Assembly: GCA_944358865.1 (NCBI GenBank)
Contig: CALVRV010000004.1
Location: forward strand, 3,759 to 67,758
Reading direction: 5' to 3'
DNA: 64,000 nt
Origin: an uncultured Bacilli bacterium
Lineage (GTDB): Bacteria > Bacillota_I > Bacilli_A > RFN20 > CAG-826
Both the position numbers and the translations under genes were made by a program. Numbering within the stretch: position 1 is the first letter of the stretch; each line of letters begins with the position of its first letter. Of this stretch, positions 7,040 through 15,342 are shown in pieces. The notes under the pieces are model-generated. The model worked only from the letters and a program-made list of their open reading frames with translations. It did no database searches and was not told where the DNA came from.

Positions 7040-9774
7040 CTCATCCTTAGCTCCGCATATTTGCAATTAAATCCTTTAGAATTTATTTTAGAATTACGTA
7101 AAAATTTATTAAGTGCGATTGGCAATATAACAAGCAATATCCATGTAATTGAGAAATTAGATAAAACTACGATTGAAAATGATAGTACACTGCCGAATAG
7201 GTGATTATATAAGATAACAAGTGGGATTTTACAAATCGCAGCAATTCCAAATACTATAGCTTGATATTTAACAAGTCCAAGACCATTTGCAACAATTTGC
7301 TGTGATAAAAGTATACAGGTTATAATATCATTGATACAGAAAATAATTACTATGTACCATGATACATCTGGCGCACTGTTACCTAACCAAATTTCAAATA
7401 TAAATGGCATCATAACAGATATTAAAACAATTATAAAGCATGTAAAAATACTTGCATATGTTAATATTTTTCTAAGTTTATTAACTTTTTCCATGTCATT
7501 ATTTGCGTAAGCTCTAGCAATTGCAACCCAAAATGGTGGTTGAAAAACACTTGCAAAACCAGAAGTAATAAAATTGAATATTTTATAATAATATGAATAC
7601 TGAGTAACTAAAGCAGTGTCTCCAAAGATAAAAGTGATTATATAATCATTCATTCCAGTTAAAAATAAATTTGAAATTTGAACAATAAAAAACACAACAT
7701 TTAATCCAATTAAACTTTTGATAATCTTCCAGTGCGTGTTATTCTTTTTAAAATCTGGTTTGCATAGAGGAAGACGTCTTGAAAAAACATAATATGTCGC
7801 AATAAAAAGTGGCAACAATGTAGCAACAAAATACATGCAAGCTAAAATTATAAATTTGTCAGAAAAACTTACCAAACTACCTACTATCGCAAAAATAAGC
7901 AAAATAACATTAGAAATCAAAGTTAAAGAACCTCCAATAGCGGATTCTCCAATTGAATCAAGTATAGGAACAATAGTTCTAAATACAAATTGTAAACATA
8001 CTGTAATAAAAACTATAAAAATTGTAATAGATAAATCAAATCTACTAATAACATTGGTTCCAATATTATATATGTCGTCATTCCAATTTAATGTAAAAGC
8101 TAGAATGCTTAAAATAATTAGCAGGACTCCTGATACAATAGTAGAAAAACTATATGTTGCAGAAATATATTCCTTAGCTTGGTTTAAATTTTTCTGTTGT
8201 AAAGAAATAGATAATTTTGTTCTCAAGCCATTAGAAAATCCAAAATCAAAAATGGTTATAAAACTTAAAACAGATATTATTGTTAACCACACACCATAAT
8301 ATGTATCATTCCCAAAGTAAAGTGAGTAAATAGGTATTGTAATTAAACCAACAATTAAAGAAATAATTTTAACAATAAAAGATAAACCAACATTTTTTGA
8401 AACTGAATTATTGTCGCCAAGAATTTTCCCAATTGTAGAATCAGAATAACTAGTCATCAAATTTTGCTTATTTTCCCATTTAAACTTAATTGAATCAAAA
8501 GTGAACATTAAAATAAAGGCAAACGAAATAAAAATATTTACCTGGTTTTCTTTTTCAAAAAGAGCAAGTATAAAACATGTTAGAAATAACTTTCCAGGCC
8601 ACGATATATCTTTTCGAAAAAAAGGCGCAATTGCTAAAATAATTACAAAAAATATAAAGAATATACCAAATCCGCTTAAAAAATATCCTATCGTAGATGT
8701 AGCTGCATCAACCTGACCATTAGAAATTTCATAATATATTCCATTAGCAGAAACAGGTCCTACACCTAAAAATGGTGATCTAATCATAACTTGTAAATGA
8801 TAAAATAAAGAATTTAATCTTGTAATCAATGAAAAAGAACCGCCAAATATTTTATCTTGGTAATACCATAAAGAAAATCCTAAAAACACTACACCAATAG
8901 CAGCGCCAATTATTAATAGGTACTTTTTAATATCTGGTTGTTTAATTTCAAAAAACGAAAAATAAATTATAAACGGAACAATAAGAAACGCTGCCGTTGA
9001 AAATGTTGTTAAGAGTGAAATAACAAAAAGGATACACCTATAGTAATTTTTTTCTTCTTTTAAAAAAAACAATTCAAATACTAGACCTATTAATATAATA
9101 GTGCCAAAAACTCCAGGTTCCCAAAATATAGCCATATTTCTATCAGAAGCTGATGCTGCTAAAGTTCCTGGCAAACCATTTCCAAAATCATAAAATAAAA
9201 ATAAATAGTTTTGTATAATATAATTTTGTTGTATATCTAATTGCGTTCCATAAACATAATTTGTATTAAATAGCAAAAAATAAAAAATTAAAGATACTAC
9301 ACAAATAATTGAAAGAACATTAACAAAAAACCGCCCGAATTCTTTAAAAGTTGTCGATTTGCACAGCATATAAGAAGAAAAGATCATAACAATAAAGTTT
9401 ATATAACTATATACATTTAATGGCTTATCGCTGCACAATATAAAAGATAATAAAACAATAAAAGAAAAAAACAAAACAAATACAAAAGAAAATGATGGCC
9501 GATATGTTTTTTGCTTTATAGAATTAAAAGTAGTTTTTAATTGTGAAATAAAATTATGTCTTGATAAAAATAGTATTATCAAAAGCAATACCATTAATCC
9601 TAAAATTATTATTTTATATCTAGTGCTGTCTAAATCAACTATGAACCTAGAACCTGATTCTAATAAAATTGAAAGACATAACAAAACAATAAAAATTATT
9701 TTGCTAAAACGAATTTTAGATTTAAATAATTTTGTATATAAATAGTTAATATTATCTTTAAAAGTTATTTGCAT
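7036..9774 (-). CDS. Polytopic membrane protein: N-terminal O-antigen polymerase/ligase-like (Wzy-type) half fused to a C-terminal MOP-family flippase (Wzx-type) half
   Basis: 912 aa, hydrophobic throughout. The N-terminal half contains DRNMAIFWEPGVFGTIILIGL, a Wzy/O-antigen-ligase-like loop. From about aa 440 the Wzx-like start appears (VGLSFIVKIISLIVGLITIPIYSLYFGNDTYYGVWLTIISVLSFITIFDFGFSNGLRTKL). I saw no stop or strong internal SD between the halves. Confidence 0.55.
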   Translation of the reverse strand: MQITFKDNINYLYTKLFKSKIRFSKIIFIVLLCLSILLESGSRFIVDLDSTRYKIIILGLMVLLLIILFLSRHNFISQLKTTFNSIKQKTYRPSFSFVFVLFFSFIVLLSFILCSDKPLNVYSYINFIVMIFSSYMLCKSTTFKEFGRFFVNVLSIICVVSLIFYFLLFNTNYVYGTQLDIQQNYIIQNYLFLFYDFGNGLPGTLAASASDRNMAIFWEPGVFGTIILIGLVFELFFLKEEKNYYRCILFVISLLTTFSTAAFLIVPFIIYFSFFEIKQPDIKKYLLIIGAAIGVVFLGFSLWYYQDKIFGGSFSLITRLNSLFYHLQVMIRSPFLGVGPVSANGIYYEISNGQVDAATSTIGYFLSGFGIFFIFFVIILAIAPFFRKDISWPGKLFLTCFILALFEKENQVNIFISFAFILMFTFDSIKFKWENKQNLMTSYSDSTIGKILGDNNSVSKNVGLSFIVKIISLIVGLITIPIYSLYFGNDTYYGVWLTIISVLSFITIFDFGFSNGLRTKLSISLQQKNLNQAKEYISATYSFSTIVSGVLLIILSILAFTLNWNDDIYNIGTNVISRFDLSITIFIVFITVCLQFVFRTIVPILDSIGESAIGGSLTLISNVILLIFAIVGSLVSFSDKFIILACMYFVATLLPLFIATYYVFSRRLPLCKPDFKKNNTHWKIIKSLIGLNVVFFIVQISNLFLTGMNDYIITFIFGDTALVTQYSYYYKIFNFITSGFASVFQPPFWVAIARAYANNDMEKVNKLRKILTYASIFTCFIIVLISVMMPFIFEIWLGNSAPDVSWYIVIIFCINDIITCILLSQQIVANGLGLVKYQAIVFGIAAICKIPLVILYNHLFGSVLSFSIVVLSNFSITWILLVILPIALNKFLRNSKINSKGFNCKYAELRMR

Positions 9775-9868
9775 AGAGGTTATTTTACTTTTTTCATTTT
9801 ATTACTATGTCAAATTCAAGTCAAATAATAATGAGTTAAAATATATTTATATATTTTGCATGTTTTAT

Positions 9869-10936
9869 TTATATTATTGATTCCCAAATATCAAAAATGC
9901 ATTCCTCATTATATTTATCAATAATTTTTCTACAATTTAATGATATACATTCATACGTTTGTTTATTATCTTTTAATTTTGTTAAATATTCAAGTGCACA
10001 ATCAATGGTTTTATCATCAAAAATAAAACCATTAACCCCTGTTTCAATGATTTCATCTGCACCACTCCAATTCGTAGAAATAACAGGGACTCCATTAATC
10101 ATTGCTTCAATCATGGAATTTGGCATTCCTTCGTTTTTAGAACAAACAAGCATAGCAAATGTATCATTATAATAATTAAAAATATCTTTAACTTCTCCTA
10201 CAAAATGAACTTTTTGAGAAATGTTTAATTTTTTAGCTTGTTCGATCAATAAATTTGTATTATAAAAATTACTAGAATTATCTTTTCCAATAATATAAAA
10301 TTTAAAATTATTATATAATTTTAAAAATTTAGAAAAAATATTTAGCATCATATCTTGCCTTTTTTGATTAATTTCAATTCTTGCAACAGATATAATTCTT
10401 TTTGAATAAAAACCATTTATATTATTAGTTTTAGCTTTTGAAAAAGGATTGGAAATAATAATAATTTTATTTTTCAAAAATCTATCATAAGTATTTGCTT
10501 GAGCTTTTGTTTGGCAAACAATTTTGTTAACTCTATGTTTAAGAAAAATTAAACCTATTTTTGAAAATAAAGATAATTTATATGTATTTGTTCCCCTTAT
10601 TATTAGTTTGCAATTACGATTAAATAAAATACCAAGCGCAGAAATCAATCCGTATTTTATTCCAACGCCAATAACAGTATTAATATTATATTTTTTTACA
10701 ATTTTTCCTATTTTGCTAGAAAAATAAAAGATATGAAAATAACGATGTTTAAATGGCCTACTAATATCAATAATTTTTATTTGTTTATTAAATTTATAAA
10801 ATACACTATTAGAAAATAAAATAATTATATAAACTTCATATCCTATATTAGAAAAATGATTGGCTAATTTAGATACATTTCTTTCTGCACCACCACTAGA
10901 TAAAGAAGTTACAACAAAACAAATTCTTTTTTTCAT
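9869..10936 (-). CDS. Glycosyltransferase family 4
   Basis: 355 aa. The N-terminus has SLSSGGAERN, and the E-x7-E region NEGMPNSMIEAMINGVPVISTNWSGADEIIETGVNGFI is present. Confidence 0.8.
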   Translation of the reverse strand: MKKRICFVVTSLSSGGAERNVSKLANHFSNIGYEVYIIILFSNSVFYKFNKQIKIIDISRPFKHRYFHIFYFSSKIGKIVKKYNINTVIGVGIKYGLISALGILFNRNCKLIIRGTNTYKLSLFSKIGLIFLKHRVNKIVCQTKAQANTYDRFLKNKIIIISNPFSKAKTNNINGFYSKRIISVARIEINQKRQDMMLNIFSKFLKLYNNFKFYIIGKDNSSNFYNTNLLIEQAKKLNISQKVHFVGEVKDIFNYYNDTFAMLVCSKNEGMPNSMIEAMINGVPVISTNWSGADEIIETGVNGFIFDDKTIDCALEYLTKLKDNKQTYECISLNCRKIIDKYNEECIFDIWESII

Positions 10937-10944
10937 ACATATTT

Positions 10945-11832
10945 TTAATTTTCATCACCAAATTTAATATCTAGCACAATATGAACTTCGCGTTTTTCTA
11001 TTGGAGGCAATACCATATAATCATCTCCATATTGAGCTTTCAATAGATAATCATAATCTGTAAAAGATTCGTATAATTTTCCATTAAATTCATACAGAGA
11101 TAGATTATTTAAAATACTATTATCAACTAAATATTTATCAAAACCTATGACAGTATTAATAGCAAAATATTTACTATCTTTATTTTGATAAAAATATTTT
11201 AATAATTTTTTTCTAGAAAAAATATAAAAAGGCCTGCAAAAAAAGCCTAATATTCTTCTTTTTAAATAATAAAACCTAACATTTTTATTAATATGAAATA
11301 GTTTATCAGGGGTATATTTATATTCAAACGCTAATGTTCCTATATGAACTAAAAGATTAACTTTTTTACTTAACAATTTTCTTTTAAATTTATTTGTAGG
11401 AATTGGAAAAATAGGAAAAATATCAATAAATATTCCTTTTGGATTTGGATATTTTTCTGCTGTAAATTCAACAAAAGAAGTATTCTTTTTCATTATTTTT
11501 AAAGCAAAAAATGGGTTTTTATTATAATCATAAAAAATTCCTGCAAATTCGTATTTATTAGGATATTCTTTTTTTACAGCATCAATAATTTTTGGAAAAT
11601 CTTTTGCAAAAGCTACAACATCAATATCGTCATCCCATGGTATAAATCCTTTATGTCTAACTGCACCTAATAACGTACCATGCATAATATAAAATGGAAT
11701 ATTATATTTTTTACATACATTGTAGACATCATCAAAAATTAAAAATATTTCATTTTGTAATTTTTTTAAAACTTGATCGTCTAGCAAATATTCTTGTAGA
11801 TTTGCTGTCAAAATTTGCTTAGATGTTTTCAT
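10945..11832 (-). CDS. LicD-family phosphotransferase (transfers a phospho-alcohol such as glycerol-P, ribitol-P or choline-P onto glycan)
   Basis: 295 aa with the LicD signature MHGTLLGAVRHKGFIPWDDDIDV. It has an ATGA start/stop overlap with the upstream cytidylyltransferase. Confidence 0.8.
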   Translation of the reverse strand: MKTSKQILTANLQEYLLDDQVLKKLQNEIFLIFDDVYNVCKKYNIPFYIMHGTLLGAVRHKGFIPWDDDIDVVAFAKDFPKIIDAVKKEYPNKYEFAGIFYDYNKNPFFALKIMKKNTSFVEFTAEKYPNPKGIFIDIFPIFPIPTNKFKRKLLSKKVNLLVHIGTLAFEYKYTPDKLFHINKNVRFYYLKRRILGFFCRPFYIFSRKKLLKYFYQNKDSKYFAINTVIGFDKYLVDNSILNNLSLYEFNGKLYESFTDYDYLLKAQYGDDYMVLPPIEKREVHIVLDIKFGDEN

Positions 11833-12227
11833 AATTTAGTTTCTTTCTTTAAATTTTCCTTAATCGCAGTAGTTGAAACTTCCGGTGTTCTCTTCAAATA
11901 AATAACATTTACATATTTATTTAGATAGTCGAATTTCCCTTCCCAATCATCTCCGATAACAAAAGTATCAACATGATACTTTATAACATCGTCTATTTTT
12001 TGTTCCCAATTTTTTTCTGGAATAACTAAATCTACATACCTAATTGATTCAAGTAACATTTTTCTTTCTTCGTAAGAAAAATATGATTTTTTACCTTTTA
12101 TAGCATTAAATTCATCAGTAGATAGTCCAACAATCAAATAATCGCCTAACTGTTTAGCTCTTTTTAATAAATTTATATGCCCATAATGCAATAAATCAAA
12201 CGTTCCGTATGTAATAACTCTTTTCAT
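11829..12227 (-). CDS. tagD: Glycerol-3-phosphate cytidylyltransferase
   Basis: VITYGTFDLLHYGHINLLKRAKQLGDYLIVGLSTDEFN is the TagD/cytidylyltransferase HxGH signature. I placed the start at ATG 12227 (MKRVITYG, 132 aa, AAGGCGG SD). The 36 extra N-terminal residues in the ORF track have no support. Confidence 0.85.
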   Translation of the reverse strand: MKRVITYGTFDLLHYGHINLLKRAKQLGDYLIVGLSTDEFNAIKGKKSYFSYEERKMLLESIRYVDLVIPEKNWEQKIDDVIKYHVDTFVIGDDWEGKFDYLNKYVNVIYLKRTPEVSTTAIKENLKKETKL

Positions 12228-12438
12228 TTTCCGCCTTAATAAATTGTATATTAATTTCAGTTGTTTAACAATCCTAATTATCTTTAAAGATATCCGTATT
12301 GCTGCAATGTATGTAATCTTAAACATTTGACACATCTTTAAATCAATTTAAATGCAATTATAAAACTGCCCAAGATAAAACTGATTATCGTCTTATGCAT
12401 CGGTATTATAAATTTATTAAAATCAATACGTTTTTGTT

Positions 12439-12876
12439 TTATCCATATATAGCGAAATGTAAAATCAAATCTTTGTCTAATACGCATGGCTTTAAAAATT
12501 TATCTGAAAAACCAGAATCCTCATCAAAAGAAGTAGTAAAAAAAGTAAATGACCAATATCCATCTCCTTCTAAATATGGTAATTCATAATTTAGAGATGA
12601 TGCATTAAAATTATCAATATCTTCGTATGAAAGATTGTATCCTTTCTTAAATTTAATACTAGTTTTAGCTAATTCGTCATTTAAAAAATAATAACCATCA
12701 ATCTCATCATTTTCATCATATGAAAATCTTAAAAATGTATGTTGGACAAATGTTAAAGTCACTTGTACTTGTTGATTCGTATTATTTAAAGATTCGGAAT
12801 TAGTCAATCCTGAAGAACAAGCCGAAACTAAAGTTAATAATGCCACTAATACAAATATTGAAGACATTTTATTCAT
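12439..12876 (-). CDS. Putative lipoprotein
   Basis: 145 aa. The signal peptide MNKMSSIFVLVALLTLVSAC carries lipobox LVSA/C, and GAAGGA lies upstream of the ATG. Confidence 0.6.
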   Translation of the reverse strand: MNKMSSIFVLVALLTLVSACSSGLTNSESLNNTNQQVQVTLTFVQHTFLRFSYDENDEIDGYYFLNDELAKTSIKFKKGYNLSYEDIDNFNASSLNYELPYLEGDGYWSFTFFTTSFDEDSGFSDKFLKPCVLDKDLILHFAIYG

Positions 12877-13088
12877 TTAATAATTCCTTCTTTAATAATA
12901 TTTTAATCAATAAAAGATTATGTGTAAAACATATTAAATATATTTTTAAACGTGAAACATTACAAAATTAAATATGATTGTCATTGTTAATATAATCTAA
13001 ACTTCGTGATTTTCCGTGATACGAGGTTTAAACCCACAATACAAAATTATAATTTAATTTCTTATTTAATTTCATTTGATTTCAAATG

Positions 13089-13108
13089 GTGTTAATTAAC
13101 GAAGTTTA
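13089..13108 (+). repeat. 20-bp repeat copy A: GTGTTAATTAACGAAGTTTA (contains the palindrome GTTAATTAAC)
   Basis: 19/20 identical to copy B, which lies exactly 180 bp downstream. It ends in the motif ACGARGTTTA, also present at 13021-13030 (+) and 12998-13007 (-). Confidence 0.8.
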
Positions 13109-13268
13109 CTATTCAATAAAACTAAATAATTTAAAATTGAACTTGACGGTTAAAATTTGCCACAATCCACCGCAGGGAATAATTAAACCATATAGATAAA
13201 ACCAAGGCTTGTTGCTTGAGTTTTAAAACAAATCTAGTGTAAAGCATTTACTTATACAATTTTAATGA

Positions 13269-13288
13269 GTGTTAATTAACGAGGTTTA
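13269..13288 (+). repeat. 20-bp repeat copy B: GTGTTAATTAACGAGGTTTA
   Basis: See copy A. It lies 8 bp before direct-repeat copy 1. Confidence 0.8.
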
Positions 13289-13295
13289 TAAAATT

Positions 13296-13377
13296 TCTAT
13301 TTATCACATAAAATAAAAAAATCTGAATGCTTTATAGAAATTTCTAAGATTGCATCAGATATTTTTTAAAAATTTTG
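13296..13377. repeat. 82-bp direct repeat, copy 1 (contains a terminator-like long hairpin flanked by an A-run and a T-run)
   Basis: Aligned base by base with 15187-15268: 79/82 identical, no indels, constant offset 1891 bp. The hairpin arms are ATCTGAATGC / GCATCAGAT around an inner TAGAAATTTCTA palindrome, followed by TTTTTT. Confidence 0.9.
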
Positions 13378-13460
13378 CCTACATTCTACACTTTTAATAT
13401 AATGTTAAACCTTACAAAAACAACAACATGAACTTTTTGACTAAACTATTAATTAGTATT

Positions 13461-14831
13461 TTAATCTATGATTTCCCAATGACCAGTTTTATTTGAACCA
13501 ATCCTATAAATGAGTCCTTTATTTCGAAGCGAGTTAAGAGTTCTAGAAACTGTGCGCTCAGATAAATTAGTCTGCTCACTAATTTCTTTTCGAGTTAAAT
13601 TTCCATTTAACGATATAGCTTCTATTATTAGTTTTTCAGCCTTAGATAATGTATGGTCGTTTATTGTGCCATTTATTGTGCCATTTATTGTGCCATTTAT
13701 TGTGCCATTTACAGTGCCACTTACAGTGCCACCTTGGCCGAAACCAATCTTATCAAACGGGATAGTCACGGTTATTGTATTGGTAGAAAATTTATAGGCA
13801 CTCTTCCCATAAACTTTTACCACTTCTGGTACGCCATGTCCAGAACGTTCAACAATACGGCATGACTTAAATATATCCATCAAATCAGGATTAACAGGCT
13901 TTGAAATACCAGCTAAAAATTCTTCTTCAGTAAGACCATAAGGAAGACCGCCTTGCGATTCTATTTCCATCCTATCTTCAAAAATATAGATTTGTGGCGA
14001 AATATGCGTATCCCATAAGTTGTGGACACAGGCGTTGATCCAGGCTTCCTCAAACGCTTTGTTATCAAACATTCTTTTTTCTTTGCGAGGTCTGCTGCTC
14101 ACATCAACATAGGTCGGATTGATTGCCTCACAATAATTTATTGCATCCTTGTATGCTTGTATTAGTGACTTATTACCATATTCGTTGCGCATCAAATATT
14201 CAGTTTTATCTTTACCTTTAAAAACACAAACTGCAATTGAAATTCTATTTTCATCTGATAACAAATTCGCTAGTAAGTTGTATCTTCCGTCGCTTGTTAC
14301 AAGATTAAAATTATTAAGGAAAGTATCATCATTAATATGAACATCATTTAAACGAAGTTTATCCCTTAAAGTTTCAAATTTTAAATCGGTTCTATTAATA
14401 GGTATTTCACTTAATAAGGTGCGTTTATAATTTAAGGAGGCGATGAATCTTCTGTCAATCTCTTCTTCGCTCATTGGTGTTGAAGATGTTCCATCTCTAT
14501 AAAAACATCCCGTTGCACTTCTTCCTTCTTTCTTAATGTAATAGAGTTTGGTTCCTTTAGTTACTTTGACAGTAACAATAGTTTTATCATCTTCAAGTAA
14601 CGAACCTATTTCACACAAGCCTTCTGTTGATGGAAGAATCTGATCTCTAATAATGTCTCTTATTTCTCTCATTGTTTTATCGACATTGGTTATACCTACA
14701 ACTTCACCATTATCATCAACACCAATATATATAATTCCATTTCTAGTATTTAAAAAAGCAACGACTTCTTTTGCAAAATCTTTTGTTAATGTTCTTTTAA
14801 GTTCTATAGTTTCAGATTCTTGAAATGTCAT
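13461..14831 (-). CDS. AlbA_2/Schlafen-like (divergent AAA) domain protein with a central HATPase_c_4-like region, a Gly-Thr-Asn repeat linker and a C-terminal winged-HTH. Usually annotated as 'putative DNA-binding/ATP-dependent helicase RecG-related transcriptional regulator'.
   Basis: The N-terminus ESETIELKRTL...EVVAFLNTRNGIIYIGVDDNGEVVGI matches my memory of the AlbA_2 (PF04326) pattern. The middle has INACVHNLW...RMEIESQGGLP, which is HATPase_c_4-like. The C-terminus LTRKEISEQTNLSERTVSRTLNSLRNKGLIYRIG is a wHTH. AGGTG lies 8 nt before the ATG. Confidence 0.65.
   Translation of the reverse strand: MTFQESETIELKRTLTKDFAKEVVAFLNTRNGIIYIGVDDNGEVVGITNVDKTMREIRDIIRDQILPSTEGLCEIGSLLEDDKTIVTVKVTKGTKLYYIKKEGRSATGCFYRDGTSSTPMSEEEIDRRFIASLNYKRTLLSEIPINRTDLKFETLRDKLRLNDVHINDDTFLNNFNLVTSDGRYNLLANLLSDENRISIAVCVFKGKDKTEYLMRNEYGNKSLIQAYKDAINYCEAINPTYVDVSSRPRKEKRMFDNKAFEEAWINACVHNLWDTHISPQIYIFEDRMEIESQGGLPYGLTEEEFLAGISKPVNPDLMDIFKSCRIVERSGHGVPEVVKVYGKSAYKFSTNTITVTIPFDKIGFGQGGTVSGTVNGTINGTINGTINGTINDHTLSKAEKLIIEAISLNGNLTRKEISEQTNLSERTVSRTLNSLRNKGLIYRIGSNKTGHWEIID
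13663..13734 (-). repeat. In-frame 12-bp tandem repeat x6 (4 perfect ATTGTGCCATTT units plus 2 diverged) encoding GTVS-GTVN-(GTIN)x4
   Basis: Read directly. The units start at 13663, 13675, 13687, 13699 (identical) and at 13711, 13723 (ACAGTGCCACTT / ACAGTGCCACCT). Confidence 0.9.
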
Positions 14832-14931
14832 TATAAAAACACCTGCTTTCTTGCCTATGTTTATTATAACTAAAAATCGCTTATTTTTCCATATCTTAGA
14901 GAAATTTAAAATCGCAAAAAAAGCTAATGAA

Positions 14932-15132
14932 TTACTCCTCAGGATTTATCATTATCTCAAACCATTTATAAGGCTTGAATGTTATTGATTTATCTTTATT
15001 AACCACTGCTTTTTCTAGGTTGAAATTAAATATTCCATCATCTAATTGAAACAATACTTGCTCATTTTTTAAAGTTTTGAGAAATGAATTAATATTGCAT
15101 TCATCATCTATCTTCTTTTTTTGACTAATCAT
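14932..15132 (-). CDS. Hypothetical 66-aa protein, first gene inside the repeat-bounded islet
   Basis: ATG at 15132, co-directional with and 100 bp upstream of the AlbA_2-like gene. No family recognised and the SD is weak. Confidence 0.35.
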   Translation of the reverse strand: MISQKKKIDDECNINSFLKTLKNEQVLFQLDDGIFNFNLEKAVVNKDKSITFKPYKWFEIMINPEE

Positions 15133-15186
15133 ATTTTTATCTTCACTATGTTATTAAGTTGCTACACAGCGTTATTTTAATAAGCA

Positions 15187-15268
15187 TCTATTTGTCACAT
15201 AAAATAAAAAAATCAGAATGCTTTATAGAAATTTCTAAGATTGCATCAGATATTTTTTAACAATTTTG
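15187..15268. repeat. 82-bp direct repeat, copy 2 (abuts and overlaps by 2 nt the 3' CCA end of tRNA-Ala)
   Basis: 79/82 identical to 13296-13377. One mismatch (A for T at 15215) weakens the hairpin stem in this copy. Confidence 0.9.
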
Positions 15269-15342
15269 GTGGACCTGAAGGGGATCGAACCCTCTACCTC
15301 CTCCATGCCATGGAGGCGCTCTCCCAGATGAGCTACAGGCCC
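15267..15342 (-). tRNA. tRNA-Ala (anticodon GGC), CCA encoded
   Basis: The reverse complement folds as a 76-nt cloverleaf: GGGCCTG TA GCTC ATCTGGGA GAGC G CCTCC ATGGCAT GGAGG AGGTA GAGGG TTCGATC CCCTT CAGGTCC ACCA. It has the G3:U70 alanine identity pair and the TTCGATC T-loop. Confidence 0.9.

Follow-up and report, generated by a model that had tools for sequence, protein, structure and literature searches.

A Schlafen gene between two trailer repeats behind tRNA-Ala in an uncultured Bacilli bacterium: probable remnant of a large serine recombinase prophage-like element

The stretch of DNA analysed here (64,000 nucleotides of an uncultured Bacilli bacterium, from the ENA metagenome scaffold ERZ28614090 scaffold_188, called the window) carries, directly behind a tRNA-Ala(GGC) gene, a short islet that is bounded by two direct repeats and encloses two open reading frames (ORFs) of 66 and 456 amino acids (aa). 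The islet is a degraded integrative element, its cargo is of a known, defence-like kind, and it does not form a new two-gene system. We read it as the internally deleted remnant of a prophage-like element of the large serine recombinase (LSR) type that keeps one intact, defence-linked Schlafen gene, and put the probability of this reading at roughly 0.72. Followed in the direction of the tRNA, the window retains a trailer repeat (T) and the left-end leader of the element, then the 3'-terminal 66 codons of the second LSR gene and the cargo gene, and finally the right end with a further T. About 1.8 kb remains; the relatives on viral contigs are 23, 36 and 52 kb long.

The tRNA gene and the parts of the islet all lie on the minus strand of the window. 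The tRNA-Ala(GGC) gene (15267..15342, found by ARAGORN and by the Rfam tRNA model at 56.6 bits) supplies the left junction of the element at its 3' CCA end. The proximal copy of T (15187..15268), on the attL side of the element, contains an AT-rich hairpin with a T7 run behind it and overlaps the tRNA by its last two bases (CA) only, while the distal copy of this common core (13296..13377) stands on the attR side. An earlier reading made from the letters alone (the sequence-only reading) had reported the copies as 79/82 identical at an offset of 1,891 bp, with two ORFs between them and one copy at the CCA end, all of which is confirmed; identity extends more weakly to 13285 and 15176 (93 nt, 91%). 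A 53-nt core of the repeat occurs at exactly two places in the 64 kb (and in none of 100 shuffles), and nhmmer --max with a profile of nine copies finds no further copy in the window at E<1. The only ORFs of at least 40 aa between the copies on the tRNA strand are 14932-15132 (66 aa) and 13461-14831 (456 aa). The GC fraction of the longer is 0.336, against a window mean of 0.266 (standard deviation 0.029), the highest of all 1371-nt segments, which agrees with the earlier remark that this stretch is less AT-rich than the adjacent glycan operon. Just inside the repeats are the two ends of the element. The leader (15133..15186, with ...GCTTATTAAAATAACGCTGTGTAGCAAC...) aligns with the sequence that follows T in L009 and with the left end of the viral contig L033 (CACTTTTTAAAATTACGCCGT...), and the right-end segment (13378..13460) ends in ...GTGTAGAATGTAGGCA at its T junction, with about 65 nt aligning to the right end of L032, to L008 and to L011 (related loci are cited by such handles where they must be told apart).

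The 66-aa ORF (14932..15132), cast in the sequence-only reading as a partner or regulator of the larger protein, is a recombinase stub and not a partner gene: by tblastn and phmmer comparison it is the 3' end of an LSR gene, surviving as a pseudogene fragment. With LSR sequences as queries, tblastn marks one site in the window, 14935-15132 (E 2.8e-7 with the intact LSR P0010, 2.9e-12 with the truncated LSR fragment P0006), and no other LSR-like sequence in the 64 kb. Pfam, NCBIfam and PADLOC give no domain match for the ORF, nor for the 148-aa frame of L009 when matches up to E 10 are admitted, and an all-against-all phmmer comparison was the only search that identified it. In the full phmmer scan its 99-aa homologue P0003 matched 134 representatives, the long ones of which are LSRs matched at their extreme C-termini. 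P0010 (493 aa, with Resolvase, Recombinase and Zn_ribbon domains) is 57% identical to P0003 over residues 395-486; the final 99 residues of the second LSR of L032 match P0003 at 65% identity and end at the same C-terminal position. In L009 the stub frame stays open for about 148 codons, and the ATG ATT AGT that begins the 66-aa ORF in the window is an internal TTG ATC AAT of that frame. Homologues of the ORF amount to 3 clusters only among 5.8 billion, all at 79-95% identity. It is found only where an LSR stub survives and is absent at the Schlafen homologue loci L018, L019-21, L022-27 and L028-30, so the proposed co-occurrence of 66-aa homologues with AlbA_2 genes does not hold. The description of the islet as integrase-less is literally true but misleading, since the recombinase has been deleted down to a stub.

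Viral contigs show what the parent looks like. L032 (IMG/VR, from a 51.6-kb contig) has LSR1 (431 aa), LSR2 (526 aa), 88 nt, a 455-aa Schlafen homologue (50% identical to that of the window), an HNH-like gene, the right-end segment and T. Positions 13378-13441 of the window align with L032 8743-8807 (about 65 nt), up to the common junction at which ...ATGTAGGCA meets T (in L032, ...GCGTAGTATGTAGGCA meets T), and the trailer behind the right end of L032 is of the type that follows the transfer-messenger RNA (tmRNA) gene in L009. L035, taken from a viral contig of 22.7 kb, likewise carries a pair of homologous LSRs, with a host flank 100% identical to that of L032 from the same junction and a different gene replacing the Schlafen gene; two different LSR-pair elements are found here at one host site (L032 8805-8901, L035 10882-10978). 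The right-end segment terminates in ...GGCA in L032 and in ...GCCA in L035. The slot between LSR2 and the right end, holding the Schlafen and HNH-like genes in L032 and a P-loop kinase-like gene in L035, looks on this comparison like a cargo hotspot. The other end is seen in L033, the left end of a 36-kb viral contig, where tRNA-Glu(TTC) is followed directly by the same trailer; the leader next to it can be aligned to L009 and to window 15186-15133. Homologues of T stand directly 3' of tRNA-Leu(CAA) in L010, of the tmRNA in L009 and of tRNA-Glu(TTC) in L033. The layout of an intact relative, pieced together from the right ends of L032 and L035 and the left end of L033, is tRNA or tmRNA gene, T, left-end leader, phage body, two tandem LSR genes, variable cargo slot, right end, T and host DNA. 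The paired-LSR layout recurs in L017, L032 and L035; P0010, the closest intact recombinase, is the second of two tandem LSR genes in L017 (1967-4751), where it lies beside an IS110-family transposase.

The order LSR2, Schlafen gene, right end and T in the window is colinear with L032, and T plus leader is colinear with L033 and L009. Since the segments inside each repeat match both ends of intact viral contigs, the window holds both ends of the element with almost all of its interior deleted, and on the same evidence the repeats are, as had been supposed, the integration scars of a foreign element. By comparison with these contigs, the order is T, leader, LSR stub, cargo, right end and T, and the junction at the terminal CA of the tRNA is fixed. 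In the mechanism we propose, the LSRs would serve as the integrases of the element, and the 82-bp repeat would be the stretch common to element and target to the right of a fixed crossover at that CA. The element would carry its own copy of the tRNA trailer/terminator, which would produce the repeat, and the native trailer copy would be pushed to the far end on integration. Because the element would bring its own trailer, the tRNA should stay terminated after integration. The remnant would be immobile alone, and movable only by the recombinase of a related phage acting on the two intact ends, or by homologous recombination. The Schlafen cargo, with a promoter-like site of its own, would, judging by its homologues, most likely act as a single-gene phage-defence protein whose N-terminal Ex4ExK nuclease cuts tRNA or other RNA, and whose GHKL-type ATPase and winged helix-turn-helix (HTH) parts would hold the nuclease in check until an infection cue.

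The cargo gene (13461..14831) is an intact prokaryotic Schlafen (pSlfn) gene, recognised through Pfam, PHROG, AlphaFold and Foldseek, and its 456-aa product is, by criteria of both sequence and structure, a member of the HisKinase-HTH class. Pfam finds SLFN_AlbA_2 (1.8e-19), HATPase_c_4 (2.2e-15) and HTH_24 (1.6e-8). The Schlafen/AlbA_2 nuclease-like domain (residues 5-121, 14469..14819) matches PF04326 over the full model (1-118), and its Ex4(E/D)xK motif is intact (E5-SETI-E10-L-K12), with E5, E10, L11 and K12 at least 90% conserved in 62 homologues; the motif is the one defined as catalytic for Schlafen nucleases (PMC13056530). The HATPase_c_4 domain, a GHKL/histidine-kinase-like ATPase, is found at residues 279-343 (13803..13997; PF13749); N266, H270, N271, G331 and G333 are invariant in the same homologues, and G294, G295 and H332 at least 90% conserved. 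The C-terminal winged HTH, of MarR/TrmB-like type (residues 395-448, 13488..13649), is matched by HTH_24, MarR_2 and TrmB and by MarR-family structures in Foldseek. An AlphaFold model (62 homologues) has a mean predicted local distance difference test score (pLDDT) of 87.7 and one disordered linker. Foldseek matches the model to 3LMM over its full length (2e-20), to SLFN12 (7lre, 7e-4), to the N-domain of SLFN13 (5yd0, 1e-2) and, at the C-terminus, to MarR-type regulators; the AlbA_2/HATPase_c_4/HTH assignment of the sequence-only reading is thus upheld by Pfam, AlphaFold and Foldseek together. A sequence search of the PDB with the protein returns no match. PHROG 12156 matches residues 3-456 at 7e-73, and p02 of Mycoplasma phage phiMFV1 is 35% identical over 99% of the length. 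The identical 456-aa protein is present on 4 contigs. Its gene has a ratio of nonsynonymous to synonymous substitution rates (dN/dS) of 0.07-0.13 against four homologues, and on these values is under purifying selection. Upstream are a promoter-like site (TGGAAA-17-TATAAT, 14863..14891; a consensus match by scan only, in an intergenic region conserved in L008-L011) and the Shine-Dalgarno-like AGCAGGTG (14840-14847).

Between the ATPase domain and the winged HTH lies an in-frame 12-nt tandem repeat (13648..13731, located by repeat finding), coding for a disordered (G-T-I/V-N)n linker with pLDDT below 50 at residues 367-391. As compared across window 13648-13731, L022 6088-6246, L032 7104-7164 and L018 8684-8888, its unit and copy number vary in every homologue (GTIN, GTVN, N(D/G)T(V/L), NFTE, NEHL), and it looks like a hypervariable, slippage-prone spacer. 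Clusters of 12-nt repeats resembling this coding repeat also occur in non-coding DNA 3' of Schlafen homologues (L019 7432-7795 and L018 9271-9315), those of L018 being inverted relative to the coding repeat of the window; they could be gene-fragment debris or binding sites.

Prokaryotic Schlafens have now been reported as phage-defence effectors, with tRNA cleavage shown for the immunoglobulin (Ig)-like fusion RorSlfn5 (Perez Taboada et al., Nat Microbiol 2026, PMC13056530). In that study the Ig-like fusion showed both defence and tRNA cleavage and the DUF262 fusion defence alone, and Slfn-HisKinase-HTH fusions made up 19.2% of 5,930 prokaryotic Schlafen proteins (PMC13056530). A defensive Schlafen has also been found in Enterococcus (PMC13552941). 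The earlier statement that such proteins have no demonstrated function, and that the islet could be an undescribed system, is overtaken by the demonstration in 2026 of prokaryotic Schlafens as phage-defence tRNases (PMC13056530), with the qualification that the present architecture is not itself among those shown to defend.

The same truncated cassette, at about 92-95% nucleotide identity, stands behind tRNA-Ala in the window, L002, L008 and L011, behind tRNA-Leu(CAA) in L010, and behind the tmRNA in L009. A 2.49-kb block (window 15422-12933) runs from the promoter region of the tRNA through the tRNA itself, the proximal T, the stub, the Schlafen gene and the distal T to the end of a 363-nt non-coding stretch. 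Its counterparts in L008 and in L011, the latter a metagenome-assembled genome (MAG) named 'uncultured Bacilli bacterium', are 92-93% identical to it. The genes on the right flank of the block differ in L008 and L011, and so does the left-flank gene in L011; the L008 sequence starts 68 nt upstream of the tRNA. When the T copies of these three loci are compared, proximal copies group with proximal and distal with distal. The proximal and distal copies are therefore orthologous, and the duplication is older than the split of the window, L008 and L011. A more distant homologue (81% identical) follows tRNA-Gly(CCC) in L018 (NCBI MAG GCA_964327785.1, 5749-9160), where it opens a tandem pair of Schlafen-HisKinase-HTH genes (period about 1716 nt); three copies of a short terminator repeat, unrelated in sequence to T, separate the genes. 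The nuclease domains of this pair are 86% identical to each other and the remaining parts 35-63%; against the window protein, the nuclease domain of the second copy is 90% identical and the rest 43-61%. The other homologue loci have neither a tRNA nor flanking repeats. One Schlafen homologue adjoins two DNA methylase genes, presumably part of a restriction-modification system.

Several observations weigh against the reading of the islet as an LSR-type prophage remnant, in whole or in part. The proposed comparison of the tRNA-Ala locus with related genomes has yielded no empty site among four related contigs; all three relatives with this locus (3/3) carry the islet in the same arrangement, and with orthologous repeats, so the insertion must be old. 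The contigs listed by exact-protein look-ups of the flanking AcnX small subunit and lipoprotein are all islet-bearing or truncated, and Logan assemblies of the same species (L004 end, L005 end, L007 start) break inside the tRNA, the repeat or the downstream hairpin, which leaves the presence or absence of the islet unreadable there. No excised circle was seen, the junction expected for one being the right end ...GTAGAATGTAGGCA, then T, then the leader GCTTATTAAAATAACGC. Neither an end-to-end structure nor both T copies were seen in one intact parent element. LSRs are known to cross over at 2 bp and are not known to require a long shared sequence, so that the enzyme itself does not account for the 82-bp repeat: a serine integrase typically leaves a crossover of about 2 bp, and the repeat that flanks the islet measures 82-93 bp. 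A fixed crossover would be in keeping with the sharp left boundary at the terminal CA of the tRNA, and the long identity to its right needs a separate explanation. A different integrase, such as a tyrosine integrase, may conceivably have been encoded elsewhere in the parent element. In L009 (1950-3855) the GC content, about 29% at first, climbs to 50-65% within the Schlafen gene and on into dnaJ; past position 2000 this locus may be a chimeric metagenome scaffold, or may carry a C-terminal swap from a high-GC organism. Against a defensive role of the cargo stand the absence of any PADLOC model for the protein besides its HTH, the absence of known defence genes among the Pfam-annotated genes noted within about 10 kb of the islet, and the failure of two Slfn-HisKinase fusions to protect E. 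coli (PMC13056530).

Also adverse are premature stops near the Schlafen N-terminus in two of the three relatives with the tRNA-Ala locus, two TAA codons in L008 (579-737) and a change of GGA to TGA in L011 (1700-1866). An alternative genetic code that would rescue the TGA was rejected: long ORFs in translation table 11 are intact in the lineage and its tryptophan codon is TGG, so the TGA of L011 is a real stop or a sequencing error. Codons 54-360 of the L008 and L011 genes still show a dN/dS of about 0.1, which suggests either that the nuclease end was lost recently or that a shorter protein starting at M54 is in use.

Among other explanations, the one put forward by the sequence-only reading is now very improbable: a novel module of two genes for defence or abortive infection, with the 66-aa protein serving the AlbA_2 ATPase as partner, antitoxin or regulator. 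The two ORFs are adjacent and in the same direction, and the frame of the smaller is open, in the window, L002, L008, L010 and L011. Yet the small ORF is the tail of an LSR gene whose start codon arose inside LSR coding sequence, its position is occupied by a full recombinase in L032, it is missing upstream of the homologues at the other Schlafen loci, and its homologues form three clusters only among 5.8 billion. Its dN/dS of 0.24-0.72, on few substitutions, is looser than the 0.07-0.13 of the Schlafen gene. It is likewise improbable, if somewhat less so, that the 82-bp element is a reusable terminator repeat of this genome and that the genes simply lie between two ordinary terminators with no integration at all, despite the resemblance of T to an intrinsic terminator (hairpin and T7) on the tRNA strand and despite related sequences following several tRNA-type genes. 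The dispersed copies that such a repeat should have were not found where they were looked for: the 64 kb hold two copies only; a strict pattern run on 185,579 species genomes (GTDB) matched one contig, at the distal copy of its own islet (the proximal copy is one mismatch off); and scans of JGI metagenomes and IMG/VR gave chance matches only, with five relaxed-pattern matches inside coding DNA such as carB. Every true T copy found is at an end of this element family, and the sequences inside each copy are element ends common to viral contigs.

Two further explanations are unlikely without being negligible. One takes the cassette for a living non-autonomous mobile element (cis-mobilisable or satellite-like) that the recombinases of resident LSR phages move between tRNA and tmRNA trailers. 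Both ends and both T copies are intact, and the recombinase-truncated cassette at tRNA-Ala, tRNA-Leu(CAA) and tmRNA (about 92-95% identity) would mean that new contexts were reached after the recombinase was lost; L018 could be added as two Schlafen cassettes stacked behind tRNA-Gly(CCC) with three trailer copies separating them. But the orthology of the T copies across the window, L008 and L011 means that there has been no recent turnover at the tRNA-Ala site, neither an empty site nor a circle junction was found, L010 covers just 620 nt, and L009 may be chimeric. The repeats of L018 are unrelated in sequence, and no LSR trace is present there, so that array may be a plain tandem duplication. 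The other makes the protein a housekeeping or element-maintenance transcription regulator (HTH and ATPase) with no immune role, its position behind a tRNA being only the result of the integration site. This would agree with the MarR-like C-terminus, with the JGI name of its relatives ('predicted HTH transcriptional regulator'), with the loci L019-27 lying among ordinary metabolic genes, and with reports that the tested HisKinase fusions gave no defence and that 30% of pSlfn genes have no defence neighbours (PMC13056530). A purely regulatory role is argued against by the Ex4ExK motif (at least 90% conserved), by the placement of the gene in a phage cargo slot that holds a different gene in another element, by the homologue that adjoins a DNA methylase gene pair, by the mosaic make-up of the gene (the second L018 copy, 90% identical to the window in its nuclease domain and 43-61% elsewhere), and by the independent N-terminal knock-outs of L008 and L011, which a costly nuclease would lead one to expect. 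An extended form of the LSR-remnant reading seems to us unlikely. In it, a phage family of uncultured low-GC Bacilli would use tandem LSRs to integrate precisely at the CCA ends of various tRNA and tmRNA genes, bringing replacement copies of the trailer/terminator; the 1.8-kb attL-Schlafen-attR stub would be a recombinase-less defence cassette that these phages can still move from one tRNA locus to another, and its HisKinase-HTH Schlafen an active tRNA-directed defence nuclease.

Two further ideas were tried and rejected. A tRNA fragment in the distal repeat is not supported when tRNA 3' halves are compared with the DNA upstream of the distal copies (p 0.14-0.99 for the window, L008, L011 and L018), and an apparent match of this kind in a MAFFT alignment of L018 did not survive shuffling. 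An integron cassette with attC was dismissed as well: there is no integrase among the Pfam-annotated genes within about 10 kb, by eye the repeat ends are without RYYYAAC/GTTRRRY cores, and the repeats of L018 are short terminators of the ordinary kind.

Each T copy is an imperfect palindrome between an A-run and a T-run (13315-13343/13338-13366, 72% complementary), as the sequence-only reading had noted in calling it a terminator-like hairpin. The fold itself is weak (-12 to -15 kcal/mol, with 1/4 folds beating shuffles, z -2.5), and, with too few G-C pairs, it is missed by a consensus terminator scan. On this evidence the label 'terminator-like' is plausible for both copies, and the distal copy probably also terminates the Schlafen gene. 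Beyond it lies conserved non-coding DNA (12933..13295), 92-93% identical in L008 and L011, with homology stopping at 12933. Rfam at E up to 1 finds only the tRNA and a sub-threshold antisense-RNA match in the islet and this 363-nt stretch, which shows no excess fold against shuffles (z -0.26). A blastn search of the islet block against known phages and plasmids has the tRNA as its sole match. About 180 nt past the distal repeat, at 13083-13168, there is a possible third, degenerate junction and trailer copy (...GGATTGTGGCA followed by AATTTT...TTTTATTGAATAGTAAACTTCGTTAATTAACAC; p about 0.02 against shuffles), which suggests an older insertion, almost wholly deleted. Farther along, a glycan operon (9400-12900, with LicD, a cytidylyltransferase, glycosyltransferases and a lipoprotein) has a GC fraction of 0.19-0.27, markedly AT-richer than the housekeeping side. 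From the boundary at 12933 other genes replace it in L008 and L011, which makes it a second variable region.

These results remove a false lead, for the supposed 66-aa partner is a gene fragment and the AlbA_2 protein supposed to form an undescribed system falls in the commonest class of bacterial Schlafens. They also supply a worked example of a defence-type cargo gene that outlives its prophage, with all else but the two ends deleted. Location at the tRNA CCA/trailer junction seems unusual for serine integrases, and serine-recombinase elements at this junction of tRNA-type genes should be a lead worth following. A further lead is the protein itself: as a natural HisKinase-HTH Schlafen of Bacilli whose gene is intact and has a promoter-like site of its own, it is a reasonable candidate for study of a major Schlafen class so far without a phenotype.

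Comparison with known systems places the parts of the islet separately. The protein resembles the HisKinase-HTH class of pSlfn in its N-terminal Slfn/AlbA_2 domain with Ex4(E/D)xK fused to a histidine-kinase-like ATPase and an HTH, in being a single-gene module on mobile DNA, and in combining a conserved nuclease domain with variable C-terminal parts; it differs in its hypervariable 12-nt-repeat linker. It has the full-length architecture of DIP2311 of Corynebacterium diphtheriae (PDB 3LMM), of PHROG 12156 and of phiMFV1 p02, although sequence identity to 3LMM is only 13-14%; the 'DNA helicase' names of the PHROG 12156 and phiMFV1 p02 relatives are legacy annotations, no helicase domain being found in the window protein. 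The element as a whole invites comparison with the genomic islands integrated at tRNA and tmRNA genes by tyrosine integrases, which Williams reportedly classified in 2002. It shares with them a position directly 3' of single tRNA-type genes (Ala-GGC, Leu-CAA, Glu-TTC, tmRNA) and flanking direct repeats. Unlike theirs, its repeat is a trailer/terminator that includes of the tRNA 3' part only the terminal CA, and its sole recombinase trace is of the serine family; for about 10 kb to either side, the genes annotated by Pfam include no tyrosine integrase next to the tRNA. Prophages and satellites have defence-gene hotspots, such as those of P2/P4, next to their integrase/att end. The parent element belongs to another phage family and host lineage, with two slot occupants sampled, but resembles them in its variable slot, which lies after the recombinase genes and before the right attachment site. 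The closest parallels are grounded prophages and the cis-mobilisable elements (CIMEs) of the Streptococcus thermophilus ICESt1 literature, att-flanked elements without recombination genes. The islet differs from CIMEs in a parent with tandem LSRs rather than a tyrosine integrase and in the unusually small size of the remnant (1.8 kb). Like CIMEs it has the same truncated cassette at other related target sites, and like them and grounded prophages it has kept both ends and both repeats, lost its recombinase, and retained one adaptive cargo gene.

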